Shown: positions 36,768 to 57,611 of the stretch, piece after piece
How the letters are laid out: each line of letters opens with the position of its first letter
How positions within the stretch are numbered: position 1 is the first letter of the stretch
Assembly: GCA_024231905.1 (NCBI GenBank)
Contig: JAAEQC010000102.1
Coordinates: 234,974-298,973 of the forward strand
Source of the DNA: a bacterium
Lineage (GTDB): Bacteria > Krumholzibacteriota > Krumholzibacteriia > LZORAL124-64-63
Reading direction: 5' to 3'
DNA length: 64,000 bases
The notes under the pieces: model-generated
What the model was told of the DNA's origin: nothing
The model's database searches: none
The model's input: the letters and a program-made list of their open reading frames with translations, nothing else
Made by a program: the position numbers and the translations under genes

Positions 36768-37202
36768 GTGGGCAAACGCAGAAAGGGCCGTGAGATCGTT
36801 CTCCAGTCCCTGTACGCCTCGCTGATCAACGGCGGGCCGCTGAGGGACGTGCTGGACGACCAGCTCCGGCAGCGTGAATCCGCCACCGACACGGTGGAAT
36901 TCGCCCGCGATCTGGCCCTGAAGATCTCCACCCACAAGACGGAACTCGAGACCTGGCTGGGGCAGCTCGTCAGCGGCGGCTGGAGCCCCGAGCGCGTGGG
37001 CATGGTCGAGAAGATCGTCATCACCATGGGGCTGGCGGAACTCCGATACAGCCCGGACGTTCCCTGGCGCGCGGTCATCAACGAAGCCCTCGAACTGGCT
37101 CGCCGTTTCTGCGACGAGGACGCGGTGGGGTTCGTCAACGGCGTCCTGGACAAGGCCGCCGCCCAGACCTACCCCGAGATCCGCGGCAAGGAGACCACGT
37201 GA
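36768..37202 (+). CDS. nusB: Transcription antitermination factor NusB
   Basis: GKRRKGREIVLQSLYA... is a NusB fold. GTG at 36768 with an AGGAG RBS 7 nt upstream. Sits downstream of ribH, as is common. Confidence 0.85.
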   Translation: MGKRRKGREIVLQSLYASLINGGPLRDVLDDQLRQRESATDTVEFARDLALKISTHKTELETWLGQLVSGGWSPERVGMVEKIVITMGLAELRYSPDVPWRAVINEALELARRFCDEDAVGFVNGVLDKAAAQTYPEIRGKETT

Positions 37203-37987
37203 GGGCCTCGACCCCCGGGCACTGGCAGCGCTTCTGGGAGCAGGCCGACGGCCTGGAACTGGAGGACGTCTACGGGACCGACGGCCGCATGGTACGCGAG
37301 GTCCTGAATCTGGGCGACCCGGCGGGCAAGCGCATCCTCGAGGTGGGGGCGGGCACGGGCCGCGACGCGGTGACCCTGGCCGCAGCCGGGGCCGAGGTCC
37401 TGACCCTGGACTACGTGGCCGGTTCGCTCCACCTGACCGCCAAGGCCGCCGCGGGCGCCGGCGTCACCGTGGCCACGGTCTGCGGCGACGCCCTGGATTC
37501 GCCTTTCGCCGACGGCACCTTCGACGTGGTCTTCCACCAGGGGCTCCTGGAACATTTTCGGGACACGACACCCTTGCTGACGGACAACGCCCGCCTGCTG
37601 GCGGCCGGTGGCCACCTCATCGTGGACGTACCCCAGACCTTCCACTACTACACCGTGGGCAAGAAGCTGCTCATCGCTCTGGACCGCTGGTTCGCCGGCT
37701 GGGAGACCCAGTTCACCATGGCCCAACTCGAGCAGCTGGCCGAGGCGCGCGGTCTGGAAGTCGTCCGCAGCTACGGCGACTGGATGGTGCCGGGCCTCTG
37801 GTACCGCGCCCTGCGCAAGCTCCTGCTGACCCGCCTGGGCTGGAAGCTGCCCATGCACCCGGAACCCGTGCCCGCCCTGGCGCGCCTGGGTGAACGGTGG
37901 CGCCGGTTGTTCGCCACCAAGAGACTCTCGCTGTACACCATGCCGACCATCGGGGTGGTGGCTCGCAAACCGGAGGCGAAGTCCTGA
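37199..37987 (+). CDS. Class I SAM-dependent methyltransferase
   Basis: SAM-binding motif I ILEVGAGTGRD and an acidic loop. GTG overlaps the nusB stop (GTGA). Confidence 0.7.
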   Translation: MRASTPGHWQRFWEQADGLELEDVYGTDGRMVREVLNLGDPAGKRILEVGAGTGRDAVTLAAAGAEVLTLDYVAGSLHLTAKAAAGAGVTVATVCGDALDSPFADGTFDVVFHQGLLEHFRDTTPLLTDNARLLAAGGHLIVDVPQTFHYYTVGKKLLIALDRWFAGWETQFTMAQLEQLAEARGLEVVRSYGDWMVPGLWYRALRKLLLTRLGWKLPMHPEPVPALARLGERWRRLFATKRLSLYTMPTIGVVARKPEAKS

Positions 37988-39108
37988 GACTGCTGGCCCT
38001 CAACTGGCGGGACATCAACGACCCCCTCGGCGGCGGGGCCGAGTTGCACCTGCACAAGATCCTCGCGGGGGCTGTCCAGGCGGGCTGGCACGTGGACCAG
38101 GTCTGCTGCACCTACGAAGGGGCGGAAGCGGCCGAGACGGTGGATGGGATCCACATCCACCGCCGGGGCCACTGGTCCGTGGCCAACTTCGTTCTGCCCG
38201 GGGTGGTGCGCGGCCTGCTCAAGGAGCACCGCTACGACCTGCTCCTGGAGGACATCAACAAGCTGCCCTTCTACACCCCCCTGTACAGTGGCGGCGTGCC
38301 CGTGCTGGCGGTGGTCCCGCACCTCTTCGGCACCACCGTGTACCGGGAGGCCAACGCGGTGCTGGCGTCCTACGTCTGGCTGGCCGAGCAGCTCATTCCA
38401 CCGGTCTACCGGAACGTGGACTTCGAGGTCATCAGTCCCTCCACCCGGGACGACCTGATCGCCCGCGGCCTGGACGGCGATCGCATCCGCACCGTCTACT
38501 GCGGCCTGGAGCACGAACGTTTCGCACTGGCGGACCCGCCGCCGCGTTCGGCGACGCCCCTCGTGGTTTGCTGGAGCCGCCTGCGCCGCTACAAGAGCAC
38601 CGACGTGGCCATCCGGGCCTTCGCGCGCATCCACCGGGAACTGGCCGACGCCCGTATGCTGGTCATGGGACGGGGGCCGGACGAGGAACGTTTGCGCAAG
38701 CTGGTGACCAAGCTCGGCCTGGACGACGTGGTGGACTTCCATGGCTTCATGCCCTGGGAAGAGCTCGTGGGCCATCTGCACCGGGCCCACGTCTTCCTCA
38801 ACCCGAGTCCCAAGGAGGGCTGGGGCCTGACCGTGGTCGAAGCCAACGCCTGCGGTCTGCCCGTGGTGGCCAGCGACCGGCCGGGGCTGAAGGACTCGGT
38901 GCGCGACGGGGAGACCGGCGACCTGGTGCCCTACGCCGACGACGCAGCCTTCGCCGCCAAGGCCCTCGAACTGCTGCGCGATCCGGAGCTGTGGCGGCGC
39001 CGCAGCGAGGCAGCCCGCGCCTGGGCCCGCACCTTCAGCTGGGAGCGTTGTGCCCAGGAATCCCTGGAGATCTTCGACCAGGTGGCAACCCGGGGGGCGC
39101 AGTCGTGA
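37897..39108 (+). CDS. Glycosyltransferase family 4 (retaining, GT-B)
   Basis: C-terminal EX7E-type motif (EGWGLTVVEANACGLPVVASD...GETG). The only canonical in-frame start is GTG 37897, which overlaps the methyltransferase 3' end by 91 nt, so the start is uncertain. Confidence 0.7.
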   Translation: MAPVVRHQETLAVHHADHRGGGSQTGGEVLRLLALNWRDINDPLGGGAELHLHKILAGAVQAGWHVDQVCCTYEGAEAAETVDGIHIHRRGHWSVANFVLPGVVRGLLKEHRYDLLLEDINKLPFYTPLYSGGVPVLAVVPHLFGTTVYREANAVLASYVWLAEQLIPPVYRNVDFEVISPSTRDDLIARGLDGDRIRTVYCGLEHERFALADPPPRSATPLVVCWSRLRRYKSTDVAIRAFARIHRELADARMLVMGRGPDEERLRKLVTKLGLDDVVDFHGFMPWEELVGHLHRAHVFLNPSPKEGWGLTVVEANACGLPVVASDRPGLKDSVRDGETGDLVPYADDAAFAAKALELLRDPELWRRRSEAARAWARTFSWERCAQESLEIFDQVATRGAQS

Positions 39109-40100
39109 AGCGGATCCTGGGCTTCCTGGCCAAGAGCGTGGTGAGCGGCGGTCTCATCTGGTACCTGCTCGCGCAAAGGCTCTCCCTCGACGACGTCACC
39201 GACGCGGTGGCCTCTCCCCGCTGGGGTTGGCTGGTGGCAGCCATGGTGGTCTACGGCCTGTCGGCCTTCGGGGGCGCCCTGCAGTGGTCCTGGCTGCTGC
39301 GGACGGCGGGGATCCGCGCCGCCGGCAGCGAGATCCGCCGTCTCTACTTCATCGGGCTCTTCATCAATAATTTCCTGCCGGCCAACGTGGGCGGGGACGC
39401 CTGGAAGATTGTCGATCTGGGCCGCCAGGAACAGCGCTCCTTGGGGGTCTTCTGCGCCACGCTCCTGGACCGCCTGCTCGGGTTGACGGCCCTGACCCTG
39501 CTGGCGGTGCTGGTCCTGCTGGGCGCCAGCGGCATCGGCGTACCCTTGCCGCGGACCGCCCTGTGGCTCGTGGCGGCATTGGGATTGTTGGGGGGCGGAC
39601 TGGCATTCCTGCTGTCCCGGCGTCTGGGACGCCTGTTGCCGGCCACCGCCCTGCGCTTCGGCTGGCAGAAGGGCGCGGCACGGCTGGCCCGGATCACGGG
39701 CGAATTCTCCCGCTATCGGGAGCGGGTCGCCTGGCTGAACGGCATCCTGGCCTTCAGCGTCGGCGTCCAGTTCATGCGCATGGCCACCCACGTGCTGGTG
39801 GCCTGGGGACTGGGTTTCGAACTGACCTTCGAGCAGGTGGTGCAGCTCTTCGTGCTGGTCCCGTTGCTGGCCATCAGCCTCACCCTGCCCATCGCCATCA
39901 ACGGCATCGGCCTGCGCGAATCCGTGTCGGCGAACCTGCTCACCTGGGCGGGCCTGGCCGCGCCCCAGGCCGTGGCCATGGAAGTGGCCGCCTTCCTGGT
40001 CCAGGTGATCTTCAGCCTGCAGGGCGGCGTGTTGCTCTGGCTGGGCCGGTGGCGTCGTCGAGACCCCGTAGCAGAGGAGTCGCGGAACTCCGCCGGGTGA
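39105..40100 (+). CDS. Flippase-like / lysylphosphatidylglycerol-synthase-TM-region-like membrane protein (UPF0104)
   Basis: Polytopic, roughly 8 TM helices, with motif FINNFLPANVGGDAWKI. GTG overlaps the GT4 stop (GTGA). The upstream part of ORF 37890..40100 is rejected as an alternate-frame run-on. Confidence 0.6.
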   Translation: MKRILGFLAKSVVSGGLIWYLLAQRLSLDDVTDAVASPRWGWLVAAMVVYGLSAFGGALQWSWLLRTAGIRAAGSEIRRLYFIGLFINNFLPANVGGDAWKIVDLGRQEQRSLGVFCATLLDRLLGLTALTLLAVLVLLGASGIGVPLPRTALWLVAALGLLGGGLAFLLSRRLGRLLPATALRFGWQKGAARLARITGEFSRYRERVAWLNGILAFSVGVQFMRMATHVLVAWGLGFELTFEQVVQLFVLVPLLAISLTLPIAINGIGLRESVSANLLTWAGLAAPQAVAMEVAAFLVQVIFSLQGGVLLWLGRWRRRDPVAEESRNSAG

Positions 40101-40181: not shown

Positions 40182-42932
40182 ATGGAACCGCTGTTGAACC
40201 GGCTGCGCCGGCCCCACATCCTCATCGCCGCCGGCGTCTTCGCCCTCACCTTGGGCGTGTACGTCACCACTCTCGGACCCACCATGGAGTTCTGGGACTG
40301 TGGCGAATTCATCACCACCAGCCACATCGTCGGCATCCCGCACCAGCCGGGTACGCCCATGTACGTGCTCATGGGGCGCGTCTTCGACGTGATCTTCGGC
40401 AGTCCACAGATCGACGAACCCGCCTTCCGCACCGCCTGGGCCCTGAACTTCATGTCGGCCTTCTTCAGCGCGTTGGCGGTGACCTTCGTCTTCCTGCTCA
40501 TCCGCGACCTGGCCCGGCGGGCCGACCCGGACGTCAAGTGGCTGCCCGAACTGGGCGGCGTGGTGGGCGCCCTTTTTCTGGCCTTCAGCCAGACCTACTG
40601 GAACAACGCCATCGAGGCGGAGGTGTACGGCCTGTCGGCCTTCATGCTGGCGGTGCTCTCCTGGCTGGCCGTGCGCTGGTACGACCACCGAGACCACGAT
40701 TCCAGCAACCACCTGCTCTTCCTTATGATCTACTTGCTGGGCCTGGGCGTGGGCTTCCACCTGGGCAGCGTGCTGGTCTATCCCGGCGTCTTCCTCATGG
40801 TGCTGCTGGCCAGCCGCCGCCAGTTGCCGGTCCTGGACCTCTTCCTCATGAGCGCCGGCCTGTTCGTTTTCCTGCTCTCGACCACGACCCGGGACAACGG
40901 CCTGGTCCTGCTGCTGCTCCTGGCGTACGCGGTGGTCGTGGGCGTGCGCGCCATGCAGGGCCATCGCTTCGCCCTGGTGGGCAGCGCCCTGTTCTTCGTG
41001 GGTCTGACCGTGCACGTCATGATGCTCGTGCGCGCTGGCGCCAACCCGGAGCCCCTGATCAACCAGACCGATCCGGACAACTTCGCCGCTCTCATGACCG
41101 TGATCCGGCGCGAGCAGTACCCGCCCCTGAACCCTTTCCAGCGGCAGGCGGACCTGGGCTGGCAGTACGGCTACTACTACGGCTTCCTGTTCAAGCAATT
41201 CTACTTCCTGGGCCCGGGCCACGGCCTGCTGACCGTGGTGACGACGGTGCTGGGTCCCATCTTCCTGGCCCTGGTGGGGCTCTTCCACGGGGTGCGGCGT
41301 CTCTTCCCGCTGGTGCTGATCCCCCTGGCCGGCTACCTCTTCAACGGCGAGATCCTCACCCTCTACCTGAATTTCACAGACCACGAAGTGCGCGAGCGCG
41401 ACTACTTCTATTTCGCGGCTTTCCTGTTCATGGCGGTCTTCATCGGACTGGGTGCCGCGGCGCTCATGCGCTACGCCCAGGGCGGGGAGGGCAAGAGCGC
41501 GGACCAGGTTGAGCGGGACGACGCCGACTGGCGCCGGGTGGTGCGCGCGACTCCCAGGTGGTCCGTATGGCTGGTTGCCGGAGTGCTGTTGGTAGCGGCG
41601 TTGCTACCCATAGCGCCGGGTAGCGTCAAGTACTGGGAGCACGACCGCTCCGAGAACCATCTGGCCTACGACTACGCCTGGAACATCCTGGCCGGGCTGG
41701 ACGAGAACGCCATCATCTTCACCAACGGGGACAACGACACCTTCCCCATCTGGTATCTGCAGATGGTGGAGAAATTCCGTACGGACGTGACGGTGGTGAA
41801 CCTCTCCCTGGTGAACCTGCCCTGGTACATCAAACAGCTCCGCTACCATCACGGCCTCGAGTTTTCCCGCACGGACGAAGAGGTGGACCGCCTGCGCCAC
41901 CGCATGTTCGAGGACCCGGAAACCGGGCAACGCGAACTGGTCATGATCAAGGACTACGTCGTACACGACATCATCACCACCAACCTGAGCCAGGTCGGAC
42001 GGCCCCTCTTCTTCGCTGTGACCATCCCGCAGGACAACATGAAGCGCTACTTCGCCAACCTGCGCATGGAGGGCATGGCCTACCGGCTGGTGCGGGAGAC
42101 CGCCCCGGACAACCTGCCCACCACCAACGCCGATAAGGTCATGGAGAACATGCTGGGCGTGTACCGGCTGGATTCGGTGCAGTCCGGCGATTCCGAAGAG
42201 CGCCAGCGCCGCTACGCCGCCATGGCCGGCCGTGCCTCCGACGACGGCACGATCATTCTGGGCCGGCCGGGCAAGCGGCTGAGCGCCGCGGACATGGCCG
42301 ACCTGGCCGCCGGTCTGGGCCAGCGCCGCCGGGACACCTTCCGCAGCATCAACGCCCGCCACCTGCTGGGCAACTATCCCACGGCATTCAACCGGGCGGG
42401 CTTCGACTTCATCCAGCAGTCCGAGCTGGTGGCCGAGACCGACTCGGTGGCCTACCGGGAATTGCTGGCCAAGGCGGCGACGGCCTTCGAGGCGAGTCTG
42501 GCCTTGGAGCCGTTCAACGACCACGCCATGGACTTCTACCCCCTGTTGCTGGTGCAGCTCTATCGGGACGACGACGCCCGCGACTTCCTGATCTCCCTGC
42601 GCGGCAACGTGGACGAGGCGCTGGAGGAGCAGATCATCTTCCGCACCTTCCAGGGACTGATCCAGGGCGGGTTGTCGCCCATCGCCCTGGGCTGGGCCCG
42701 CCAGTGGCGGCAGGACGATCCCGGGCGGGGTTTCTATTACATGCTCGAGTTCCGTCTCTACGAAGCCATGGACGAGCTGGCGGCCGCCAGTGCTATCGCC
42801 GACGAGTGGGCGACCGTGGACGGCGCACGCAACGCAGAGATGGACCGGTCCCTGGCCGAGATGCAGCAGCGGGCTCGGGCGCGGGATCTGGAGAACGTAC
42901 CGGCAACCGGCGGAGGCACTGATGGACAGTAG
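40182..42932 (+). CDS. DUF2723-family GT-C fold membrane glycosyltransferase (protein-O-mannosyltransferase-like / TMEM260-like) with a C-terminal helical repeat domain
   Basis: N-terminal polytopic region with the conserved FWDCGEFITTSHIVGIPHQPGTPMY segment and about 11 TM helices, followed by a large soluble C-terminal domain. Start placed at MEPLL (40182). Confidence 0.65.
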   Translation: MEPLLNRLRRPHILIAAGVFALTLGVYVTTLGPTMEFWDCGEFITTSHIVGIPHQPGTPMYVLMGRVFDVIFGSPQIDEPAFRTAWALNFMSAFFSALAVTFVFLLIRDLARRADPDVKWLPELGGVVGALFLAFSQTYWNNAIEAEVYGLSAFMLAVLSWLAVRWYDHRDHDSSNHLLFLMIYLLGLGVGFHLGSVLVYPGVFLMVLLASRRQLPVLDLFLMSAGLFVFLLSTTTRDNGLVLLLLLAYAVVVGVRAMQGHRFALVGSALFFVGLTVHVMMLVRAGANPEPLINQTDPDNFAALMTVIRREQYPPLNPFQRQADLGWQYGYYYGFLFKQFYFLGPGHGLLTVVTTVLGPIFLALVGLFHGVRRLFPLVLIPLAGYLFNGEILTLYLNFTDHEVRERDYFYFAAFLFMAVFIGLGAAALMRYAQGGEGKSADQVERDDADWRRVVRATPRWSVWLVAGVLLVAALLPIAPGSVKYWEHDRSENHLAYDYAWNILAGLDENAIIFTNGDNDTFPIWYLQMVEKFRTDVTVVNLSLVNLPWYIKQLRYHHGLEFSRTDEEVDRLRHRMFEDPETGQRELVMIKDYVVHDIITTNLSQVGRPLFFAVTIPQDNMKRYFANLRMEGMAYRLVRETAPDNLPTTNADKVMENMLGVYRLDSVQSGDSEERQRRYAAMAGRASDDGTIILGRPGKRLSAADMADLAAGLGQRRRDTFRSINARHLLGNYPTAFNRAGFDFIQQSELVAETDSVAYRELLAKAATAFEASLALEPFNDHAMDFYPLLLVQLYRDDDARDFLISLRGNVDEALEEQIIFRTFQGLIQGGLSPIALGWARQWRQDDPGRGFYYMLEFRLYEAMDELAAASAIADEWATVDGARNAEMDRSLAEMQQRARARDLENVPATGGGTDGQ

Positions 42933-48532: not shown

Positions 48533-49250
48533 GCGTGTGGTGAACAAGGCCGTGGTGATCGTTCCGACCTACAACGAGGCGGAGAACGTGGGCCGCCTGC
48601 TGCCGGCCATCCTCGAGCGGGACGAGCGGCTGTCGGTGCTCGTGGTGGACGACAACTCCCCGGACGGCACGGCGGACGTGGTCAAGGCCCTGCCCGGGTT
48701 CGGCGACCGGATCATGATCCTCGAACGGCCCTGCAAGGCGGGCCTGGGCGCCGCCTACATCGCCGGCTTCCAGTGGGTGCTGGCCAATACGGAGGCCGAC
48801 GCCGTCTTCGAGATGGACGCGGACTTCAGCCACGCCCCCGACGCCCTGGACGAGTTTCTGGTGGAGATCGAAACCCACGACCTGGTCCTGGGCAGCCGCT
48901 ATCTGGGCGGCATCACCGTGGTGAACTGGCCCCTGTCCCGCCTCTTCCTCTCGGTGGGTGCGAACCTCTACGCCCGCGTCGTCACCGGCATGCCCATCCG
49001 CGATTGCACCGGCGGCTTCAAATGTTTCCGCCGCACGACCCTCGAACAACTCCCCCTGGGGGAGATCAAGAGCGACGGCTATTCCTTCCAGATCGAACTC
49101 AATTACCACTGCTGGCGCCGGGGGCTGACCATCAAGGAGATCCCCATCATCTTCACGGACCGTGTGGTGGGCGTCTCCAAGATGTCGCGCCGCATCATCG
49201 CCGAGGCCATGTGGATGGTGTGGGCCCTGCGCCTGAGGCGAATCCCTTGA
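48525..49250 (+). CDS. Polyprenol-monophosphomannose synthase-like GT2 (Ppm1/DPM1-like, soluble)
   Basis: VVIVPTYNEAENV...VVDDNSPDGT...EMDADFSHAP...GSRY is a DPM1-like catalytic domain without a TM anchor. Overlaps the YfhO stop by 8 nt. Confidence 0.8.
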   Translation: MSERVVNKAVVIVPTYNEAENVGRLLPAILERDERLSVLVVDDNSPDGTADVVKALPGFGDRIMILERPCKAGLGAAYIAGFQWVLANTEADAVFEMDADFSHAPDALDEFLVEIETHDLVLGSRYLGGITVVNWPLSRLFLSVGANLYARVVTGMPIRDCTGGFKCFRRTTLEQLPLGEIKSDGYSFQIELNYHCWRRGLTIKEIPIIFTDRVVGVSKMSRRIIAEAMWMVWALRLRRIP

Positions 49251-51382: not shown

Positions 51383-53787
51383 GCATGCGGCACACAGGAA
51401 GCGGAAGACTCATGACGGCCTGCGCCCTGGCGTTGCTGGCGGTGGCGGCCGCCACGGCGGCAGCGGCGCCCGTATTCGAGCCCCTGACCCGGGCCCGCGA
51501 AGTAAGCACCCTGCTCGAACTGGACGGAAAGGTCTTCGGGGGCACGGGCGACGGCGGCGTGTTCGTATGGGACGCCGACGATCCCGGGCAGTTCGAACGC
51601 TGGACCGCCGGCACCCAACTGGGCAGCGCCCGGGTAGTGGATCTGGCCTGGACCGGACGCTACCTGTGGGTCGCCACCGACGACGGCGGCCTGACCCGGG
51701 TGGAGGACCCGGCCTCGGACGCACCGTCTTTCCGGCAGATCGGCTCGACCATGTCCACCTTCGCCACCACCGCCGTGGCCGGTCTATTGCGGGGCGACCA
51801 GGAACGGGTCTGGTACGGTCTGGGTGACGGCGGTCTGGGGGAGATCACCGACGGCTTCGACGGTTCGGTTTATACCACCAGCGACGGTCTGGTCAGCGAC
51901 ACGATCCGGGCGCTCCACATCCACGACGGTGAACTGTGGATCGGAACGCCCGCCGGCATCTCCCGTTTCGCCGACGGGGTCTTCCACGACGCCACCGCCG
52001 GCCTGGCCGGCCTGAACACCCGCGTCTTCGTCACCGACACCGCCGGCGATCTCTTCGCCGCCGGCAGCGGCGGTGTCCATCGCTGGGACTCCTCCGGGGA
52101 GGCCTGGGTATCCCTGGGCGGTATCGGCCGTACAGTGGTCGGCCTGGCGGTGGTGGCCGACGATCTCTACGCGCTGGGCGCCTACGCCGGCGGAACGGCG
52201 ACCCTGCACCGGTGGAACGGCACCGGATTCGACGACCTGGCTCTGCCCGAGCCCCGGACCCTGGCCACCGGCGGCGGCACGGCGGTCTGGCTGGGCGGCC
52301 GGATCGACGAACCCGGCATGCAGGTGAACCGTTCGGGACTGGCCTTCTACGCACGTCTGGACGCGGGCGGCGCGACCACGGTCTGGCAGCCGGCCCTGAC
52401 CCTGCCCGCCAACTGCGCGGGGGTGACTTTCGGCGCCGACGGCCGCCCGTGGCTCGGCTCCCGCTGGGGCGAGGCCTTCTCCGGTCGCCGGGATGACGGT
52501 ACCTGGGAAAACATCTACGAGATAGCCACGGTGGCCAACGACTCCTCCGGTCTCATCAACCAGATCGCACCCATTCTGGCCATGGCCACCGGCGCCGATG
52601 GCGTGGTCTGGGTGCCCCAGACCGGCTCCGGCGTGCTACGCCACGATCCGGCCACGGGCCGAACCGACCAGATCCGCCCCTTCAACAGCGGCCTGTCAGG
52701 GAATTCGCTGATCGGCGCCGTGGGGCATCCGGACGGCCCGGTTCTTTTCCTGCACGACTGGCTGGACACGGACGACAAGGTGGACGTGCTGGTGGACCCG
52801 GTCCACTGGCGCAATCCGGCGAACTGGCTCAGCCTGCCCCTGGGATCGGGCGGCCTGGGCGACGGTCCCAACGTATGGGACGCCCACGTGGCGCGGCGCG
52901 ACCAGATCTGGTTCGCTGTGGAGGGCACGGGTCTGGTGCGCTGGGACGTCAACGGCCTGAGCGCCGGACCCGACGATCCGCTGACCTGGCTCGATCAGTC
53001 CGACGACCACTGGACCGCACCCGTGAACGACTTCCCGAATACCTTCCTCGACCCGACCCAGGCGCGAGGCATCGACGACGGCCCAGGCGGTTCCCTGTGG
53101 GTGGGCGGCAACGGCGTGGTGCGCTTCCGCTACGACGGCGGCCTGATCACCACCCTGGACGACCTGGGCACGGCCGCCGGCGACGAGGGCGGCCTGAGCA
53201 ACAGCCGCGTGTACGACGTGGCCACCGACCGCCACGGGTACCTGTGGGTGGCGAACGCCTCGGGTCTGGACCGGGTCCGGCTCGGAGCGGGCGACCCTGT
53301 GGTGGACTCGTGGTTCGACGCCCTGACCTATGCCACGGACGGCGGCATCAACGGCCGCTACCTGTCCACCGCCATCGCCGACATGCCTGGCTCGAACTAC
53401 GACTTCGCGCGCCTGGCCCTGGATTCCGACCGCGGGCGCCTCCTGCACAGCGGCGACCGGGGTGTGTCCCTGGTCGACGTGGGCGGGCCGGTGGGTGCGG
53501 CGAGCGGCTCCGCATCGGCGCAACTCTATCCGAATCCCTGGCGCCCGGAACTGGGCGACGGTCTGCTCAGGATCGGCGGTCTGGGCGTGGAACCGGGGGA
53601 GACGGTCGAGGTGGGCATCTACACCGTCGAAGGCCAGCTGGTCTACCAGGATCCGACAGTGGCGCCGGACACGGGCTTCTGGCGAGGCGTCAACCGGGTG
53701 GGCAACCCGGTGGCGACGGGCCTGTACGTGGTGAAGGTGTCCTGGCGCGGAGAACACCTGATGCGGACCCTGGCGGTGGTCAGGTGA
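51379..53787 (+). CDS. Secreted beta-propeller (Reg_prop-like repeat) protein with a C-terminal T9SS-type / FlgD-Ig-like sorting domain
   Basis: Signal peptide (LALLAVAAATAAAAP). Repeated GG..R.D..G.LW.G. propeller-blade motifs. C-terminal roughly 90 aa LYPNPWRPELGDG...GLYVVKVSWRGEHLMRTLAVVR matches the Por/T9SS C-terminal-domain pattern. ATGA overlap upstream. Confidence 0.65.
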   Translation: MSMRHTGSGRLMTACALALLAVAAATAAAAPVFEPLTRAREVSTLLELDGKVFGGTGDGGVFVWDADDPGQFERWTAGTQLGSARVVDLAWTGRYLWVATDDGGLTRVEDPASDAPSFRQIGSTMSTFATTAVAGLLRGDQERVWYGLGDGGLGEITDGFDGSVYTTSDGLVSDTIRALHIHDGELWIGTPAGISRFADGVFHDATAGLAGLNTRVFVTDTAGDLFAAGSGGVHRWDSSGEAWVSLGGIGRTVVGLAVVADDLYALGAYAGGTATLHRWNGTGFDDLALPEPRTLATGGGTAVWLGGRIDEPGMQVNRSGLAFYARLDAGGATTVWQPALTLPANCAGVTFGADGRPWLGSRWGEAFSGRRDDGTWENIYEIATVANDSSGLINQIAPILAMATGADGVVWVPQTGSGVLRHDPATGRTDQIRPFNSGLSGNSLIGAVGHPDGPVLFLHDWLDTDDKVDVLVDPVHWRNPANWLSLPLGSGGLGDGPNVWDAHVARRDQIWFAVEGTGLVRWDVNGLSAGPDDPLTWLDQSDDHWTAPVNDFPNTFLDPTQARGIDDGPGGSLWVGGNGVVRFRYDGGLITTLDDLGTAAGDEGGLSNSRVYDVATDRHGYLWVANASGLDRVRLGAGDPVVDSWFDALTYATDGGINGRYLSTAIADMPGSNYDFARLALDSDRGRLLHSGDRGVSLVDVGGPVGAASGSASAQLYPNPWRPELGDGLLRIGGLGVEPGETVEVGIYTVEGQLVYQDPTVAPDTGFWRGVNRVGNPVATGLYVVKVSWRGEHLMRTLAVVR

Positions 53788-55226
53788 TGCCCCCGTCCCG
53801 CCTGCTCGTGGTCGGGGCGGGAGTGGCCGGCCAGACCCTGGTGCGCGAGATCCTGCGGGACCGCTTGCCCGCCGAACCGGTGGCTTTCCTGGACGACGAC
53901 GAAAGCCTGGCCGGACAGACCGTCTGCGGGTTGCCGGTGCTGGGCACCTCCGAGGACCTGGAGCGCGTGGCCAGCGAAGTGGACGCCCAGGAGGTCCTGC
54001 TGGCGATTCCCTCGTCGGGCGGACGCCTCGTTCGGCGCCTGGTCATCCTCTGCAAGCGTGCCGGACTGCCCTTCCGCATCGTGCCCGGCCTACGCGACAT
54101 CATTCTCGGCGACGTGAGCTTCGCCCAGGTGAGCCACGTGGAGCCGGAGCATCTGCTTGGCCGGGAGTCTGTGGACTTCAAGGACGAGGAGGCCAGCCGG
54201 GTGGTGGCTGGAAGGCGGGTCCTGGTGACCGGCGCCGGCGGTTCCATCGGCTCCGAACTGTGTCGGCACCTGCTGGACCTCGAACCGGCGGAGCTGATCC
54301 TGCTGGGCCGGGGGGAGAACAGCCTCTTCGACATCGGCACCGAGTTGGAGTCGCAGCGCGGCGAAACGCGCTTGCAGACGGTCATCGCCGACGTGCGGGA
54401 CCGGGCGCGGCTGAGGGTTCTCGCCGGCCGCCTGCAACCGGATCTCATCCTGCACGCGGCCGCCCACAAGCACGTTCCCTTCATGGAGGACAACCCGGAG
54501 GAGGCGGTGGCCGTCAATGTGGGGGGCACGGCCAACCTCATCGAGTTCGCCAGGACCGTGGGGGCAGAGCGCTTCGTGCTGATCAGCACCGACAAGGCGG
54601 TCATGCCCTCGAGCATCATGGGCGCCACCAAGAAGCTCGCCGAACAACTGGTGCGGCAGGCGGCGGCCGATGGCGATGGCACGCGCTTCATGACCGTGCG
54701 CTTCGGCAACGTCCTGGGCAGCCGCGGTTCGGTGGTCCCCTTCTTCATGAAGCGGATCGCCGCGGGTCAGCCCCTGCCCATCACCGACCCCCAGATGACC
54801 CGCTACTTCATGACCATCAAGGAGGCGGCGCTGCTGGTCATCGAGGCCATGGTGCTGGGGGAACGGGGTGCCACCTACATCCTGGAGATGGGCAACGCGG
54901 TCTCGATTCTGGAGCTCGCCCGGAACCTGCTCGTGCTGTCGGGCTACGATCCGGCGGGCGGCGACGACGGCCCCGGCATCGAGATCACCGGTCTCCGGCC
55001 CGGAGAACGCCTGCACGAAGTGCTCCACGAACCCGACGAGCAACTCCTGCCCAGCGAGAATCCCCTGATCCGGCGCGCGGTGGCCGGCGACACGGATCCG
55101 GCCCGGGTGGCCGCGGCCGTGGACGACCTGCTGGCCCTGGCCGTGGCCGGGGATACGGGCGGACTACGCCGCCTACTGGCCGATCTCACCGGGCGCGCCG
55201 TCCTCGTGGCGCCGCCACTCGAGTAG
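53787..55226 (+). CDS. Polysaccharide biosynthesis protein CapD / UDP-GlcNAc 4,6-dehydratase (PglF/WbpM-like, soluble form)
   Basis: Two Rossmann-like regions (LLVVGAGVAGQ, VLVTGAGGSIGSEL) and a catalytic region (FVLISTDKAV...MGATKKLAE). Start at ATG 53787 or GTG 53784, overlapping the upstream stop. Confidence 0.8.
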   Translation: MPPSRLLVVGAGVAGQTLVREILRDRLPAEPVAFLDDDESLAGQTVCGLPVLGTSEDLERVASEVDAQEVLLAIPSSGGRLVRRLVILCKRAGLPFRIVPGLRDIILGDVSFAQVSHVEPEHLLGRESVDFKDEEASRVVAGRRVLVTGAGGSIGSELCRHLLDLEPAELILLGRGENSLFDIGTELESQRGETRLQTVIADVRDRARLRVLAGRLQPDLILHAAAHKHVPFMEDNPEEAVAVNVGGTANLIEFARTVGAERFVLISTDKAVMPSSIMGATKKLAEQLVRQAAADGDGTRFMTVRFGNVLGSRGSVVPFFMKRIAAGQPLPITDPQMTRYFMTIKEAALLVIEAMVLGERGATYILEMGNAVSILELARNLLVLSGYDPAGGDDGPGIEITGLRPGERLHEVLHEPDEQLLPSENPLIRRAVAGDTDPARVAAAVDDLLALAVAGDTGGLRRLLADLTGRAVLVAPPLE

Positions 55227-55236
55227 GGGCGCGGCG

Positions 55237-56301
55237 GTGGAGGTCGGCATCCAGGCGACAACGCCCGCGGATTGGCCCGCCCTGGTGGCGGCCGATCCGG
55301 CGGCCGACTACTTCCATACCGCTGCCTGGAGTTCCATCGTCGCCCGTCACGTGCCCGGCGCCCGCGCCCTGTGGATCACCGTGCGCGACGCCGGCGAACT
55401 CGTGGGCGGCCTGGCTGCCGTTGCCCTGGGCGGTACGGTGCGACGCTGCCACTCGGGAGCCTTCGGTTGTGCCGGCGGACCCCTGGTGGCCGACGGCGAC
55501 GCCCGCCGCGGCCCGGTCATCGCCGGCCATCTCCTGGACGAACTGGTCGGTCGGCGGGGCGGTCTCCTGGCATCGGTCGGCGTCTCCCTCAATCCGGACC
55601 ACGAAGAACGCTGGGGCGGACGCCTCGCTGCCGACGCCCGTTTCCGGCGGGTCGACACTCCCGCGGCCGTGGTCTCCCTGGACGGCGGACCTGACGCCGT
55701 CGCCGCCCGCATGCGCAAGAGCAAGCGCAACGAACGCAACCGCGGCCTGCGGCGCGGTGCCGAATTCCTGGTGACCCGGGACCCGGATCACCTGGCGGCC
55801 TACCATCGCATCCACGTGCAGGCAGCCGGCGCCTGGGGCCAACCGGCGGTCCCTTTGGCCATGCTGCAGGACCTGCTCGACCAGGGGGCGGGCCCCGAGG
55901 GGGGCGAAGCCTACTTCGTAGCCGTGCGCTGCGAGGGACGGATCGTGGGCGGGCACCTGAACTTCCACCTGGGCGGGTCGGTCACCGCCTGGCATGGCGT
56001 CACCGATCCGGTCCTGGCCCGCACCCACTTCCCGTCCACCGTGGCCGTGTGGGGGGACGCGGTGGAGGCCTGCCGCCGCGGTGCGACCAGCCTGGATCTG
56101 GGGGGCAGCGGCGGCATCCCCTCCCTGGAGTCCTTCAAGCGGGGCTTCGGCGCCGAACGCCGGGAGCGTGGCTGGTACGTGGCGGAAACGGCGCCGCTGC
56201 GGCTGCTGCGGAGCCTGCGCGGCCTGGTCCGGCGCAAGGAAGGCAACGGGCGACGCTGGCACGACGGCGCCACCGGCGCGTCCGGTGGAGGTACGCCGTG
56301 A
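55237..56301 (+). CDS. FemAB-like / GNAT-fold (Acetyltransf_6) acyl- or aminoacyl-transferase
   Basis: Duplicated GNAT-like halves (YFHTAAWSSIV...; VTAWHGVTDP...LDLGGSG...SLESFKRGFGA), as in FemAB-family proteins. GTG start. Confidence 0.55.
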   Translation: MEVGIQATTPADWPALVAADPAADYFHTAAWSSIVARHVPGARALWITVRDAGELVGGLAAVALGGTVRRCHSGAFGCAGGPLVADGDARRGPVIAGHLLDELVGRRGGLLASVGVSLNPDHEERWGGRLAADARFRRVDTPAAVVSLDGGPDAVAARMRKSKRNERNRGLRRGAEFLVTRDPDHLAAYHRIHVQAAGAWGQPAVPLAMLQDLLDQGAGPEGGEAYFVAVRCEGRIVGGHLNFHLGGSVTAWHGVTDPVLARTHFPSTVAVWGDAVEACRRGATSLDLGGSGGIPSLESFKRGFGAERRERGWYVAETAPLRLLRSLRGLVRRKEGNGRRWHDGATGASGGGTP

Positions 56302-57611
56302 GACTCCTGGCCGCGGGCGCCCGCATCCTGTCCGGCCGCGTGGCCCAGATCCTGGCCAACGCCGCAGTGGTTTTCTGGGTGGCCAAGACCCTGGGACCCA
56401 CGGGGCAGGGCCACTACAGTCTCACCGTGGCCGTGGCCCAGCTCGCGGCTGCCCTCCTGGCCGGCGGCATGGGCCTGGCGGCGGTGCCACCCCTGCGCCG
56501 GGACCGCATCCCGGCGGCCCGCATGGTCTCGGTCCAGGCCGGCTGGGCCGGCGCTACGGGGCTGGTGCTGCTGGGCGTGGCCGCCCTGGCCGGCGGTGGG
56601 GCGGTGGGCGCCTTCTTCGCCCGGCATCTGGGCTGGTCGCCGGGGCTGGCCTTCGCCGTGGCCATCGGCGCCACCGGATTGCTCACCTTCGAGATCTTCT
56701 CCTACGACCTGCTGGCCCGTGGCAGGCTGGTCATCGGTTCGGCCATCAACGGCTGGCGCGCCGCCGGCCACCTGGTGATCGTCGGCACCGCGGGCCTGGC
56801 CGGGATGCTCGGCTTCGCCCAGGCGGTGGGGGCCTTCGCCCTGGCCCAGTGTGCGGGCGCGGCGGTCCTGGTGGGGGTCGTCCTGCGGGAGATCCGCCGG
56901 CCTTGGCCCCGGCCCGGCGCCAAGCCCGGTCCGCCCGCGCCCCTGCGCGACAAGGAGCTCCCGGCGGACCTGGCGTCCTACTCCCGCCTGCGGTTGGTCC
57001 TGTTCAACCTTCAGCGGGGTTGGCTGGGACAGCTCTCGGCCGTGGCCTACTTTCTGCTGCTGCGCCTGGACCAGGGACTGCTGGCCCGCTACCACGGTGC
57101 AGCGGAGGTGGGGGTGTACTCGGTGGCGGTGCATCTGGGCGAGATGCTGTGGTTGTTGCCCGGGGCCATGACGCCTCTGCTGGTCCATACCTCGGCGGCC
57201 GACGCCGGCGATCCGGACCGTAACCGCACGGCCGTGCGGGCCGTGGGCATCGGCATGGTCGTGACCCTGGCCGCGGCGGTACCCCTGGCCCTGGTGGCGG
57301 GTCCCCTGCTGTCCCTGTTGGCCGGCGGCGCCTATGCCGGCGCGGTTCCGGCCCTGCGGGCCCTGCTGCCCGGCATCGTGGCCTTCGCCCCGGGGGCGGT
57401 CCTGGCCGGCGACTTCATCGGTCGCGGTAAACCCCATTGGAACACCCAGGCCAGCCTGTTGACCGTGGTGGTGAACCTGGCAGCGGGCCTGTGGCTCATC
57501 CCCGAGCACGGGGCCGTGGGCGCGGCCTGGTCCAGCACGGTGGCCTATGCCTGCGGGTCGGCTCTGATGCTGATTCGCTTCCGGCAAGCGATCCGCCGCG
57601 ACCAGGCCTGA
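56298..57611 (+). CDS. MOP-superfamily polysaccharide flippase (Wzx-like)
   Basis: About 12-14 TM helices with Wzx-like topology. GTG overlaps the upstream stop (GTGA). Confidence 0.65.
   Translation: MRLLAAGARILSGRVAQILANAAVVFWVAKTLGPTGQGHYSLTVAVAQLAAALLAGGMGLAAVPPLRRDRIPAARMVSVQAGWAGATGLVLLGVAALAGGGAVGAFFARHLGWSPGLAFAVAIGATGLLTFEIFSYDLLARGRLVIGSAINGWRAAGHLVIVGTAGLAGMLGFAQAVGAFALAQCAGAAVLVGVVLREIRRPWPRPGAKPGPPAPLRDKELPADLASYSRLRLVLFNLQRGWLGQLSAVAYFLLLRLDQGLLARYHGAAEVGVYSVAVHLGEMLWLLPGAMTPLLVHTSAADAGDPDRNRTAVRAVGIGMVVTLAAAVPLALVAGPLLSLLAGGAYAGAVPALRALLPGIVAFAPGAVLAGDFIGRGKPHWNTQASLLTVVVNLAAGLWLIPEHGAVGAAWSSTVAYACGSALMLIRFRQAIRRDQA

Follow-up and report, generated by a model that had tools for sequence, protein, structure and literature searches.

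A syntenic gene run between nusB and mraZ of Krumholzibacteriota as a probable composite envelope-glycan assembly system

About 20 kb of the window (the whole 64-kb stretch of DNA analysed here, part of a Candidatus Krumholzibacteriota MAG), between nusB and mraZ, carry a run of glycosylation-type genes, which raises the question of whether they constitute one system and on which acceptor it would act. The original prediction saw 14 same-strand ORFs forming a single super-operon with a candidate protein or surface target. All 14 were confirmed on the + strand, which also carries nusB and the two promoter-like elements described below, at the predicted coordinates, with the starts of the YfhO-like and propeller genes later revised. 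Pfam/NCBIfam HMM searches backed every domain call, several with weak or sub-threshold scores.

Gene order and promoter-like elements

The cluster's conserved upstream neighbour, nusB (36636..37202; Pfam NusB 4e-25; 33/33 main-clade loci), overlaps the first gene of the run by 4 nt through its stop codon. The upstream flank comprises an FMN riboswitch, ribD, ribE, ribBA, ribH, DinB and nusB, the downstream flank mraZ, mraW and ftsI, and a gene of the GDP-mannose pyrophosphorylase type lies upstream as predicted, at about 9315-10565. Because the + strand carries almost every gene of the window, co-directionality alone has little weight; the real evidence that the gene run exceeds chance is synteny. 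All 54 related loci of the main clade share the nusB-to-mraZ order. With presence counted only over main-clade loci long enough to include the gene in question, each gene was found throughout, except those for the LPG_synthase_TM protein (33/34) and CapD (15/30). Across the phylum the enzymes share 50-80% identity, and the locus is placed among core housekeeping genes; unlike hypervariable O-antigen loci, it is phylum-wide and collinear. Krumholzibacteriota are an uncultured phylum.

Two phylum-conserved promoter-like elements fall in the two gaps that the prediction had flagged, each before a GT-C gene. P1 (40104..40134; TTGTTG-N17-TAGCTT, TG upstream) lies in the 81-nt gap before the GT117 gene. 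Sites of this type number two on the + strand of the window, against 0.37 expected, the other (32203) preceding the FMN riboswitch, and if the last base is left free, this looser pattern precedes GT117 in 37 of 45 loci. P2 (45843..45872), a sigma-70-type element with an extended -10 (TTTACA-N18-TATCAT, TG before it), is a 10/12 match with TG and the window's only instance of the motif; its conserved form, TGGACA-N17-TGATATCAT, is present in at least 29 of 50 main-clade loci. Because these elements occupy the gaps, the supposed single super-operon is better divided into at least three putative transcription units, although read-through is possible. Units 2 and 3 are each led by a GT-C gene behind its conserved promoter-like element and each contain one polyprenyl-P-sugar-synthase-type GT2. 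Two GT-C enzymes, each with such a GT2, are present as predicted, but which GT2 serves which GT-C is ambiguous: the promoter-defined units match the pairing originally proposed, whereas family precedent and the gene arrangement in Marinimicrobia instead pair the ArnC/CsbB-like GT2 with YfhO.

Gene products of the putative units

Unit 1 begins with a class I SAM-dependent methyltransferase (MT; 37199..37987; Methyltransf_11 6.7e-18; 34/34 loci, median identity 71%), followed by a generic BshA/MshA/PimB-like GT4 glycosyltransferase (37897..39108; Glycos_transf_1 1.3e-38; 34/34 loci), whose best PDB matches are 2jjm/3mbo, MshA and PimB'. With the GT4 start at 37897 the two genes overlap by 91 nt, and conservation from residue ~12 favours that start. 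The third product is an MprF-type flippase-like membrane protein (LPG_synthase_TM; 39105..40100; PF03706 2.1e-30; TIGR00374 flippase-like domain) with about eight TM helices judged by hydropathy.

The first gene of unit 2 (40182..42932) encodes a DUF2723 protein of 916 aa (PF11028 2.4e-45) that matches human TMEM260 (9rql) at 2.7e-14, and at 3.6e-22 by profile. It is a true GT117/TMEM260 homologue; its three catalytic residues, D39/H54/D517, are invariant in 25 orthologs and align with TMEM260 D52/H67/D441. The profile match ends past the Rossmann-like domain, and in the C-terminal 317 aa neither a TPR nor any other domain for peptide recognition could be detected. Next to it is an SDR nucleotide-sugar epimerase (42922..43968; SDR epimerase Pfam 4e-49), with best matches to PDB 6zl6 (7e-68), named only "Epimerase domain-containing protein", which we take to be the Bacillus cereus UDP-GlcA 4-epimerase, and to 6kv9 (2e-60), named only "MoeE5" and presumably also a UDP-GlcA 4-epimerase; the protein is therefore most like UDP-glucuronate 4-epimerases and predicted to form UDP-GalA. 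The following GT2 (43965..44915) is a polyprenyl-phosphate sugar synthase of the ArnC/GtrB/CsbB/PgfS type (ArnC 9bhc 2e-59; GtrB sll0501 5e-29; NCBIfam ArnC 5e-59, PgfS 1e-37), with two C-terminal hydrophobic helices by hydropathy, and the unit closes with a soluble rhamnosyltransferase/GlfT1/MftF-like GT2 (44908..45840; Glycos_transf_2 1e-15; TIGR01556 9e-11).

Unit 3 opens with a YfhO-like protein of 846 aa (45992..48532). The deposited product and ortholog alignments place its start at 45992, as opposed to 45896 in the prediction, so that the preceding gap grows from 55 to 151 nt. The Pfam YfhO score (25.6 bits) is below the 28.5 cutoff and covers only the C-terminal 50 aa; in the predicted model, the GT-C fold is clear. 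The adjacent GT2 without TM helices (48525..49250) is a DPM1/Ppm1-like polyprenyl-phosphate hexose synthase catalytic domain (P. furiosus DPMS 5mlz 2.5e-23), which also matches the AglJ, PpgS and Dol-P-hexose transferase families and is the most conserved protein of the locus (median identity 78%). It is followed by a fusion (49271..51382) in which GT2 and CoA_binding_3-like domains, recognized by Pfam and read before as a WcaJ-N-type fusion, are joined by four to five TM helices and by a phosphoglycosyltransferase (PGT) domain that had been overlooked. The C-terminal profile aligns with that of a true PGT at 3-917 of the window (hhalign; 97.5%, E 5e-12), yet the positions of the Asp-Glu dyad carry neither residue in any of 48 fusion orthologs, all of which (48/48) retain two scaffold glycines, and the PGT domain is predicted from this pattern to be catalytically dead.

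Behind the dead-PGT gene, at a position kept in about 46/46 loci (a Latescibacterota chromosome among them), lies the gene for a secreted protein with a signal peptide, two Reg_prop beta-propellers and a PorZ-type T9SS C-terminal domain (51412..53787; start revised from 51379 on the basis of the deposited 791-aa product). This protein is structurally homologous over its full length to PorZ, which delivers anionic LPS in the T9SS. Its CTD is scored higher by the PorZ model than by the generic T9SS CTD model, the reverse of what is seen for ordinary CTD proteins of a related locus; against the PorZ equivalog, the protein reaches 42.9 bits, below the threshold of 260. Fold and CTD scoring thus recast the supposed secreted substrate as a PorZ-like pathway component. 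The remaining genes encode a CapD/PglF/PseB-like UDP-HexNAc 4,6-dehydratase (53787..55226; Polysacc_synt_2 2e-101; PseB 1e-54), variable in occurrence and, by hydropathy, without the usual N-terminal TM domain; a FemAB/VimA-type (Acetyltransf_6) acyl- or aminoacyl-transferase (55237..56301; PF13480 8e-17), whose only NCBIfam match is TIGR03019 (2.5e-7) and which matches a PDB aminoacyl-tRNA-dependent peptide synthase at 1.6e-6; and a MOP-superfamily, Wzx-like flippase of 437 aa (56298..57611; sub-threshold MurJ, Polysacc_synt and Polysacc_synt_3 matches of about 1e-4; 27/27 main-clade loci), the last gene ahead of the mraZ promoter region.

Candidate functions of the locus

We suggest that the locus is probably a composite housekeeping system for envelope-glycan assembly in Krumholzibacteriota, with at least three promoter-defined units and made up of known enzyme types in a combination for which, as the original prediction had supposed, no description was found in the literature searched. 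In the order of steps that we infer, a glycan would be assembled on undecaprenyl carriers and then receive two periplasmic GT-C additions from lipid-P-sugars. CsbB/YfhO offers a precedent for a lipid-P-sugar and a GT-C decorating envelope polymers (PMC5836110, PMC8035078), as does RgtE/RgtD (PMC7663294). In unit 1, counted from nusB, the cytoplasmic glycosyltransferase and methyltransferase would be coupled to the MprF-type flippase-like protein. In unit 2, the SDR would convert UDP-GlcA to UDP-GalA, the ArnC/GtrB-type GT2 would charge undecaprenyl phosphate with a sugar, and the GT117 GT-C would pass the flipped lipid-P-sugar to an acceptor at the periplasmic face. In unit 3, the DPM1-like GT2 would supply the YfhO-like GT-C with a second polyprenyl-P-hexose, whose precursor is probably GDP-mannose. 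An Und-PP-linked oligosaccharide could be made in parallel, its first sugar of the 4-amino-4,6-dideoxy-HexNAc type, produced by the CapD/PglF-like dehydratase together with an aminotransferase whose gene lies elsewhere in the genome, and N-acylated or aminoacylated by the Fem/VimA-like enzyme. The GT2 fused to the dead PGT scaffold would lengthen the chain and the Wzx-like protein would flip it, while the PorZ-like double propeller, leaving via its T9SS-type C-terminal domain, may act at the cell surface by binding or delivering the completed glycan, itself probably anionic. Pfam/NCBIfam domain calls gave no initiating PGT, Wzy, WaaL/PglL-type ligase or GtrA-type flippase within the locus; with neither an initiating PGT nor a final ligase or transferase there, lipid, LPS-like anchor and protein are all candidates for the final carrier, protein thus being a possible target.

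A system dedicated to protein O-glycosylation, in which GT117, like human TMEM260, serves as an O-mannosyl- or O-glycosyl-transferase for Ser/Thr of periplasmic or surface proteins, the YfhO-like protein acts like S. mutans PgfM1/PgfM2 and the other genes elaborate the O-glycan, is conceivable but doubtful. Only one GT117 has been characterised, a protein O-mannosyltransferase, and its donor-site (D52/H67) and base (D441) residues have the invariant counterparts noted above; a DPM1-like synthase is encoded, as is a GDP-Man pyrophosphorylase. Proteins are the substrates of the Pgf system (PMC5856776), which consists of the GT2 PgfS, the epimerase PgfE and two GT-Cs of the YfhO type, and PgfS is among the matches of the ArnC-like GT2. 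In the sister phylum Bacteroidota, general O-glycosylation, whose O-OTase and core-glycan machinery are undiscovered, is said to resemble eukaryotic O-mannosylation (PMC12871550). However, a catalytic base could activate the hydroxyl of a sugar just as it does that of Thr, teichoic acids are likewise glycosylated by YfhO-family enzymes (PMC5836110), and the locus encodes no Ser/Thr-rich candidate substrate, the propeller protein being PorZ-like rather than substrate-like. Without a detectable TPR acceptor-binding domain in GT117, the protein acceptor originally proposed is not supported. It is rather unlikely, too, that the locus makes and delivers an attachment glycolipid of the T9SS type, a counterpart of P. 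gingivalis A-LPS; here the Fem/VimA-like enzyme would aminoacylate the linking sugar and the PorZ-like protein would present an anionic, GalA-containing glycan to a PorU-like sortase anchoring CTD proteins at the surface. The CTD scoring, the Wzx-like flippase and the predicted UDP-GalA-forming epimerase fit this, as do the peptide-synthase match and TIGR03019, a family that VimA, which adds Ser/Gly to the T9SS linking sugar, also matches (PMC7468200). CTD proteins passing TIGR04183 occur in a related lineage, and T9SS is reported from several non-Bacteroidota FCB phyla (PMC11285876). Against it stand the missed PorZ equivalog threshold, a related locus (L003) without a PorZ-like gene at the equivalent position, and a chemistry that differs from the Wbp/Vim route in using a 4,6-dehydratase, not WbpA/B/E/D, with no VimE-type deacetylase; a double Reg_prop propeller with a CTD could also be ordinary T9SS cargo or a sensor-derived protein.

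Modification of LPS seems improbable. The epimerase, an ArnC/RgtE-like Und-P-GalA synthase and a GT-C would add GalA (and a hexose) to lipid A or the core in the manner of Rhizobium Rgt or enterobacterial Arn, and a conserved core or O-chain would come from the remaining genes. ArnC is the GT2's strongest match, the epimerase is nearest to UDP-GlcA 4-epimerases, RgtE and RgtD/RgtF are a bactoprenyl-P-GalA synthase and GalA transferases acting on lipid A (PMC7663294), and phylum-wide conservation suits a core-type rather than a serotype-specific structure. Yet the GT-Cs are GT117 and YfhO-like, not ArnT/Rgt (PMT_2/GT83), no lpx, waa or waaL gene lies in the locus or the 64-kb window, and the PorZ-like protein and Fem-like enzyme are left unexplained. 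Peptidoglycan synthesis by the last two genes, in which a FemX-like enzyme would furnish lipid II with a branch amino acid alongside a MurJ-like flippase, is very improbable, even though these genes immediately precede mraZ (dcw cluster), the Fem-like protein matches aminoacyl-tRNA-dependent peptide synthases and MurJ (1.2e-4) is the flippase's weak best Pfam match. Wzx-type matches of the 437-aa flippase are equally weak, the closest curated family of the Fem-like protein is the PEP-CTERM/VimA-type TIGR03019, not FemX, and in deep lineages its gene follows nucleotide-sugar enzymes, a dehydratase and an aminotransferase (CapD-DegT), away from the dcw cluster.

The composite envelope-glycan system that we favour may itself be modular. 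CapD-DegT-Fem-like, the classic 4-amino-sugar route, is kept as a block in those deep lineages; DegT is absent from the locus of this genome and CapD from half of the related loci, so the amino-sugar branch could be dispensable, or its genes could lie at another site. In the Latescibacterota locus L081, unit 1 and GT117 are not adjacent to the remaining genes, and Marinimicrobia keep only the ArnC-like GT2, GT2, Wzx and YfhO. The modules have partly separate histories, and the units may therefore serve different products.

Layout, predicted transcription units and conservation of the locus

All 14 ORFs originally proposed for the locus (37199-57611, + strand) were found at the predicted coordinates, and the domain calls were reproduced by Pfam and NCBIfam searches. 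Of the predicted gene starts, the long one for GT4 at 37897 is backed by conservation among orthologs that begins near residue 12. It implies an apparent out-of-frame 91-nt overlap (37897-37987) between the 3' end of the SAM methyltransferase gene (MT) and the 5' end of the GT4 gene; the alternative in-frame start codons at 38044 and 38092 would entail loss of conserved N-terminal residues. Two other starts had to be revised, namely that of the YfhO-like gene to 45992, based on the deposited 846-aa product and ortholog alignment, and that of the gene for the propeller protein to 51412, based on the deposited 791-aa product. The junctions are tight, with distances of -4 nt (nusB/MT), -91 nt (MT/GT4), -4 nt (GT4/flippase-like LPG_synthase_TM gene), +81 nt (flippase-like/GT117, the DUF2723 gene), -11 nt (GT117/SDR), -4 nt (SDR/ArnC-like GT2), -8 nt (ArnC-like GT2/GT2), +151 nt (GT2/YfhO), -8 nt (YfhO/DPM-like GT2), +20 nt (DPM-like GT2/fusion), +29 nt (fusion/propeller), -1 nt (propeller/CapD), +10 nt (CapD/Fem-like), -4 nt (Fem-like/flippase) and +216 nt (flippase/mraZ).

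The locus is set among core housekeeping genes on both sides. Farther upstream lie a true PGT gene at the 5' edge, an ispE-like kinase gene, spoVG, prs, ribosomal protein genes, pth, selA, smc and ftsY; nearer upstream are an FMN riboswitch (32274-32416, + strand, 114.5 bits), ribD-ribE-ribBA-ribH, DinB and nusB, and downstream follow mraZ, mraW and a PASTA-containing ftsI. A GDP-mannose-pyrophosphorylase-type gene is present upstream at about 9315-10565, as predicted. Two PASTA domains are found in the FtsI-type PBP of the dcw cluster (60162-62423, + strand), an unusual feature for a lineage presumed to be diderm. A long ORF (16231-18966, + strand) encodes a SelA (selenocysteine synthase) domain, so that the organism probably uses selenoproteins, while a tRNA-Ser called by ARAGORN (22856-22944, - strand) is probably a false positive, being located inside smc and absent from the Rfam output. 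The only large minus-strand gene (26940-30995) codes for a hybrid of sensor kinase and response regulator that contains PAS, HisKA, HATPase and receiver domains. Its sensor domain is a Reg_prop double propeller of the same type as in the PorZ-like protein described below.

The original prediction had treated the locus as one single-strand super-operon. However, both gaps flagged therein contain phylum-conserved promoter-like elements. The first, P1 (40104-40134, + strand), reads TTGTTG-N17-TAGCTT with a TG upstream and was recognized using as a template the promoter-like site just upstream of the FMN riboswitch that precedes ribD (TTGACC-N17-TAACTT, 32203-32233). These are the only two + strand matches to the pattern in the window, compared to 0.37 expected per strand, and a looser version with the last base free occurs upstream of GT117 in 37 of 45 loci. 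The second, P2 (45843-45872, + strand), is TTTACA-N18-TATCAT preceded by TG, matching 10 of 12 positions in a consensus scan; its motif has a single match in the whole window and recurs as TGGACA-N17-TGATATCAT in at least 29 of 50 main-clade loci. Given the conservation of P1 and P2 in both gaps, the sequence predicts at least three units instead of one, i.e. nusB-MT-GT4-flippase-like, GT117-SDR-ArnC-like GT2-GT2, and YfhO-like through the MOP flippase, with read-through between units being possible. Another sigma-70-like site lies upstream of mraZ. In addition, a terminator-like hairpin with a T-run is located between DinB and nusB (36581-36598, + strand), so that the rib operon transcript may end there and nusB and the first unit may start separately.

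The window has a G+C content of about 70%. Its DUF2723, YfhO-like and propeller proteins are 100% identical to those of a metagenome-assembled bacterium in NCBI, and close relatives bear the labels Candidatus Krumholzibacteriota or Krumholzibacteriia. Nearly every gene lies on the + strand; this whole-window strand bias renders co-directionality uninformative, and we used synteny as clustering evidence instead. A scan of 185,579 species-representative genomes, with the YfhO-like protein as anchor and 10-kb flanks, yielded 80 loci, on which, together with three others, the 14 proteins and flanks were placed by tblastn. The expected neighbourhood recurred in related genomes: all 54 of 54 loci of the main clade (YfhO identity of at least 43%) are collinear. 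Among the main-clade loci that extend far enough to cover a given gene, only LPG_synthase_TM (33/34) and CapD (15/30) fall short of 100% presence, and median identities range from 40% (propeller) to 78% (DPM-like GT2). Gene order is unchanged in deep Krumholzibacteriia lineages, in which the YfhO-like proteins are about 31-37% identical. A Latescibacterota chromosome (locus L081) retains the ArnC-like GT2, GT4, YfhO, DPM-like GT2, dead-PGT fusion, propeller, CapD and a DegT gene; the MT-GT4-flippase-GT117-SDR part was not found near the rest in this locus. Marinimicrobia retain only the ArnC-like GT2, GT2, a Wzx-type flippase and YfhO. In one of them (L069, 6611-12340), the ArnC-like GT2, GT2, Wzx-type flippase (Polysacc_synt_3/MatE) and YfhO-like GT-C form a compact four-gene module, and such a module may represent the ancestral core of the third unit. 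As order and content are fixed phylum-wide, we rejected a variable O-antigen, capsule or other serotype-variable polysaccharide locus, and the conservation pattern looks like that of a core envelope function. Many of the loci with the Krumholzibacteriota-type cluster appear under the labels "Fibrobacteraceae", "Gemmatimonadales", "Gemmatimonas sp.", "Latescibacterota" and even "archaeon" (L006, L014, L022, L026, L039, L072 and others), probably due to binning or taxonomy-assignment artefacts.

GT-C enzymes and predicted sugar donors

Domain searches upheld the DUF2723 protein as a GT-C enzyme (PF11028, 154.9 bits vs. a cutoff of 24.2, E 2.4e-45), and NCBI lists some of its orthologs as "glycosyltransferase family 117 protein". 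It matches human TMEM260 (PDB 9rql) with an E value of 2.7e-14 as a single sequence and of 3.6e-22 as a 25-sequence profile. The match comprises two segments, an N-terminal GT-C module and a Rossmann-like luminal domain, which are common to both proteins, with residues 484-560 of GT117 aligning with residues 408-485 of 9rql. According to cryo-EM, D52 and H67 of TMEM260 are donor-site residues and D441 is the catalytic base (bioRxiv 10.64898/2026.03.17.711096). GT117 has D39, H54 and D517 at the corresponding positions, without variation among 25 orthologs; D517 resides within an invariant GDND motif. The proteins differ in length (916 aa vs. 729 residues of the human chain in the PDB). An acceptor-binding TPR domain as in TMEM260 was not detectable in the bacterial protein: Pfam gave no hit of any kind at E<=10 for the last 317 aa, a longer ortholog gave sub-threshold TPR hits only, and the TMEM260 profile match ends at the Rossmann-like domain, not reaching the TPR region. 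No bacterial function for GT117/DUF2723 was found in the literature searched. A bacterial GT117 that retains every catalytic residue and is encoded in a conserved operon next to sugar-donor genes thus provides a testable hypothesis regarding donor and pathway. Since the neighbouring genes encode a UDP-GlcA-epimerase-like SDR and an ArnC-like GT2, the donor may not be mannose.

The second GT-C protein had been assigned to the YfhO family. This assignment stands with respect to the GT-C fold, in which the Asp that follows the first predicted helix is invariant, but the PF09586 match of the protein itself scores 25.6-25.7 bits vs. 28.5 and covers the last 50 residues only. All 20 of 20 orthologs hit PF09586 at E<0.01 (best 1e-7), and the NCBI record names the product "YfhO family protein". 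Sequence searches of the PDB with this protein gave no hits, and a fold search was used instead.

The SDR best matches 6zl6 (7e-68), which we take to be the Bacillus cereus UDP-GlcA 4-epimerase, and MoeE5 (2e-60), presumably of the same activity; based on these hits, its product is likely UDP-GalA. The GT2 encoded after it is ArnC-like (2e-59), GtrB-like and PgfS-like and bears two C-terminal hydrophobic helices. The small GT2 encoded after YfhO matches the catalytic domain of the Pyrococcus Dol-P-Man synthase (2.5e-23), has polyprenyl-P-sugar synthases (PpgS, Dol-P-hexose transferase) among its strongest NCBIfam matches and, like DPM1/Ppm1, lacks a TM helix. The original prediction had seen two synthase plus GT-C pairs here. 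Indeed, the ArnC-like GT2 falls into the same promoter-defined unit as GT117, and the DPM-like GT2 into that of YfhO, in agreement with that proposal. However, the ArnC/CsbB-type GT2 is encoded two genes upstream of YfhO, a linkage persisting even in Marinimicrobia, and the gene arrangement in the latter, together with the precedents CsbB/YfhO, PgfS/PgfM and DPM1/TMEM260, suggests the opposite pairing. The pairing is therefore ambiguous.

The fusion protein, the amino-sugar branch and the propeller protein

The protein described initially as a GT2 fused to a WcaJ-N-type module indeed comprises a GT2, 4-5 TM helices and a CoA_binding_3-like domain; in addition, it carries a degenerate PGT domain at residues ~523-703. 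PF02397 (Bac_transf) gave no Pfam hit in the fusion product, but a C-terminal profile built from 48 orthologs aligned with the true PGT encoded at 3-917 with an hhalign probability of 97.5% (E 5e-12). The domain retains PGxTGxW- and SLVGPRP-like motifs, while KFRTM is absent among the 48 orthologs. Two scaffold glycines in a 14-residue stretch are present in 48/48 orthologs and PGxTG is largely kept, yet the catalytic Asp-Glu dyad is found in 0/48, with W/V/R/F/N in the Asp column and Q/N/K in the Glu column; this pattern led us to reject an alignment artefact. As the dyad is replaced in every ortholog, the domain cannot initiate synthesis. Instead, the attached GT2 and the TM-less CapD-like dehydratase may use it as a membrane scaffold or as a module that binds the lipid carrier. 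With the catalytic dyad of its PGT domain lost throughout the 48 orthologs, the GT2 fusion clearly exemplifies a pseudo-enzyme scaffold in glycan assembly. A candidate for the initiating enzyme of the locus, which has only this dead PGT domain, is the true PGT 36 kb upstream, whose 3' part (3-917, + strand; cut by the window edge) encodes a Bac_transf domain (5.9e-70) with intact SLDELPQ and KFRTM motifs.

The CapD/PglF/PseB-like dehydratase (PF02719, 339.5 bits vs. 20.2, 2e-101) has no predicted TM helices, unlike PglF/WbpM. In deep lineages, the dehydratase gene is followed by a DegT aminotransferase gene (1e-113 to 4e-122) and then by the Acetyltransf_6/FemAB-like gene. Such a DegT/PglE-type gene lies between CapD and the Fem-like gene in L058 (19261-20469) and L081 (19467-20678); none was found in the locus of the window. 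Together with the absence of CapD from half of the main-clade loci, this pattern suggests that the amino-sugar branch is subject to presence/absence polymorphism. The Fem-like protein (PF13480, 62.1 vs. 22 bits) has TIGR03019 as its only NCBIfam hit (30.1 vs. 260 bits) and aminoacyl-tRNA-dependent peptide synthases as its only PDB relatives. VimA, which adds Ser or Gly to the T9SS linking sugar, also matches TIGR03019 (Veith et al., PMC7468200). Based on the dehydratase-DegT-Fem-like block and this family likeness, the branch would likely yield an N-acyl or N-aminoacyl 4-amino-4,6-dideoxy-HexNAc. The MOP flippase has about 9-12 hydrophobic helices and only sub-threshold scores (MurJ, 21.2/27.4 bits; Polysacc_synt, 21.2/28.2 bits; Polysacc_synt_3, 20.4/23 bits).

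The propeller protein has the architecture of PorZ, with a signal peptide, two beta-propellers (Reg_prop) and a PorZ-type CTD of ~86 residues starting YPNPWRPE. By sequence, the protein matches propellers of Bacteroides hybrid two-component sensors, while its C-terminal 118 residues match PorZ (5m11, 2e-7; NCBIfam PorZ model, 2e-11). The PorZ equivalog NF052228 scores 42.9 vs. a cutoff of 260 bits, with the match restricted to residues 681-788. In a Foldseek search of the whole PDB with an AlphaFold model (pLDDT 85.8), the best hit was PorZ (E 2e-26, TM 0.60/0.63). As PorZ aligns over the full length, whereas TM-scores for the sensors are no higher than about 0.33, and as the protein has a signal peptide and a CTD but no kinase domains, we rejected the idea that it is a mere sensor-kinase fragment. 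On its own, the CTD reaches 32.6 bits with the PorZ model and 19.2 bits with that of the generic T9SS type A domain. The order of scores is reversed for four ordinary CTD proteins encoded consecutively at 14201-22510 (- strand) in L074, an outgroup locus with a YfhO-like gene; these pass the T9SS type A sorting-domain model TIGR04183 with 30-33 bits.

With a CTD HMM, such a gene was located immediately downstream of the dead-PGT gene in essentially all of the 46 sufficiently long loci; six apparent misses were judged from coordinates to be ORF-boundary or contig-end artefacts, and only L003 lacks a PorZ-like gene at this position. This fixed position, together with the PorZ-like fold of the model, argues for a conserved component rather than an occasional passenger or an obvious substrate, in contrast to the secreted substrate originally proposed. 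A PorZ-like protein within a glycan operon, beside a VimA-type enzyme, provides a genetic link of glycan synthesis to T9SS-style attachment outside Bacteroidota.

Relation to known systems and possible roles

Every building block of the locus is of a known kind. As anticipated, the combination was not found in the literature searched, and the joint occurrence of GT117, a YfhO-like GT-C, a dead-PGT fusion, a PorZ-like and a VimA-like protein at a fixed position between nusB and dcw throughout a candidate phylum, with conserved promoter-like elements inside, appears to be undescribed. The GtrA/GtrB/GtrC, CsbB/GtcA/YfhO, ArnC/ArnEF/ArnT and RgtE/RgtA-D,F systems combine two elements, a polyprenyl-P-sugar-forming cytoplasmic GT2 that has C-terminal TM helices and a GT-C enzyme that passes the sugar on outside the cytoplasm; the locus has each of them twice. 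However, no GtrA-family flippase gene lies within the locus, nor does it have another small flippase of the GtcA/ArnEF type; one of its GT-Cs belongs to GT117, a family with no characterised bacterial member, and the pairs sit in a phylum-conserved 14-gene locus with an Und-PP-glycan branch.

The Pgf system of S. mutans (PgfS, PgfM1, PgfE, PgfM2) likewise unites two large GT-Cs with a sugar-lipid synthase of the GT2 type and an epimerase for nucleotide sugars, and is part of the core genome (PMC5856776; bioRxiv 10.1101/2022.10.10.511621). A GT2 of the locus matches PgfS at 1e-37, but Pgf consists of four genes in a Gram-positive host and both of its GT-Cs are YfhO-like, whereas the locus has GT117 as one, a YfhO-like protein matching PgfM1/M2 at only ~1e-3 over 60 residues, and ten further linked genes.

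With the A-LPS/Wbp-Vim pathway and PorZ of P. gingivalis, the locus shares a double propeller of PorZ type whose CTD is non-generic, a candidate VimA-family transferase (TIGR03019-like) predicted to act on an amino sugar, a putative flippase of Wzx type and GT4/GT2 enzymes. An anionic glycan is known in P. gingivalis but only predicted for the locus, which lacks Wbp enzymes and the VimE deacetylase and whose propeller protein falls far below the PorZ equivalog cutoff. In P. gingivalis, the glycan genes are dispersed and porZ is not known to lie in a glycan operon.

The Campylobacter/Neisseria pgl systems combine PglF dehydratase, PglE aminotransferase, PglD acyltransferase, PglC PGT, GTs, a flippase and a GT-C or PglL transferase. 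They resemble the deep-lineage block of dehydratase, DegT aminotransferase and N-acyltransferase as well as the GT2/GT4 enzymes, the flippase and the GT-Cs, whose fold is similar to STT3/PglB. However, the acyltransferase of the locus is Fem/VimA-like and not a PglD-type left-handed beta-helix, its PGT domain is dead, DegT is missing from the locus of the window and there is no STT3- or PglL-family member. The locus also bears a likeness to LM/LAM assembly. Like the actinobacterial Ppm1/Pmt and lipomannan/LAM pathways, it has GT-C transferases, a GT4 potentially able to form a glycolipid primer and a DPM1-like polyprenyl-P-mannose synthase that carries no TM domain itself, but it lacks PMT/GT39 or GT87 members, and its GT4 is not specifically PimA/PimB-like; the generic PDB hits of the latter (BshA, MshA, PimB', PimA, WaaB, PglA) neither support nor reject a role in primer synthesis. 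The source organism is of the FCB lineage and presumably a diderm.

Based on sequences and predicted structures from uncultured organisms, on which all our conclusions rest, the most economical reading of the locus is a composite envelope-glycan assembly system. A more specific and rather doubtful idea is that it makes and delivers a glycolipid that covalently anchors CTD (T9SS-type) proteins in Krumholzibacteriota and Latescibacterota. In such a scheme, the Fem/VimA-like enzyme would aminoacylate a 4-amino sugar, giving a free amine as the "linking sugar", the two GT-C enzymes would add GalA and a hexose in the periplasm, and the propeller protein, as a genuine PorZ orthologue inside the operon, would pass the glycan to a PorU-like sortase. 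The pair of PorZ-like and VimA-like proteins speaks for this idea, whereas the curated PorZ threshold is not reached. Literature searches pairing T9SS with these phyla listed no study of T9SS or envelope glycans in Krumholzibacteriota, and a paper in which the phylum is mentioned makes no reference to T9SS. If true, this would be the first dedicated, phylum-conserved T9SS attachment-glycan operon outside Bacteroidota.

Apart from a composite envelope-glycan system, a dedicated protein O-glycosylation system is possible, since protein O-mannosylation is the only known GT117 activity. Moreover, for general protein O-glycosylation in Bacteroidota, both the transferase and the machinery for the core glycan "remain undiscovered", and that pathway has been likened to eukaryotic O-mannosylation (PMC12871550), which makes the GT117 and YfhO-like enzymes of FCB bacteria candidates. 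An Rgt/Arn-like modification of LPS would explain the GT117-SDR-ArnC-like GT2-GT2 unit but leaves the rest of the locus unexplained. Finally, the last two genes, encoding the Fem-like protein and the flippase, could act on peptidoglycan, but their context in deep lineages renders such a role unlikely.
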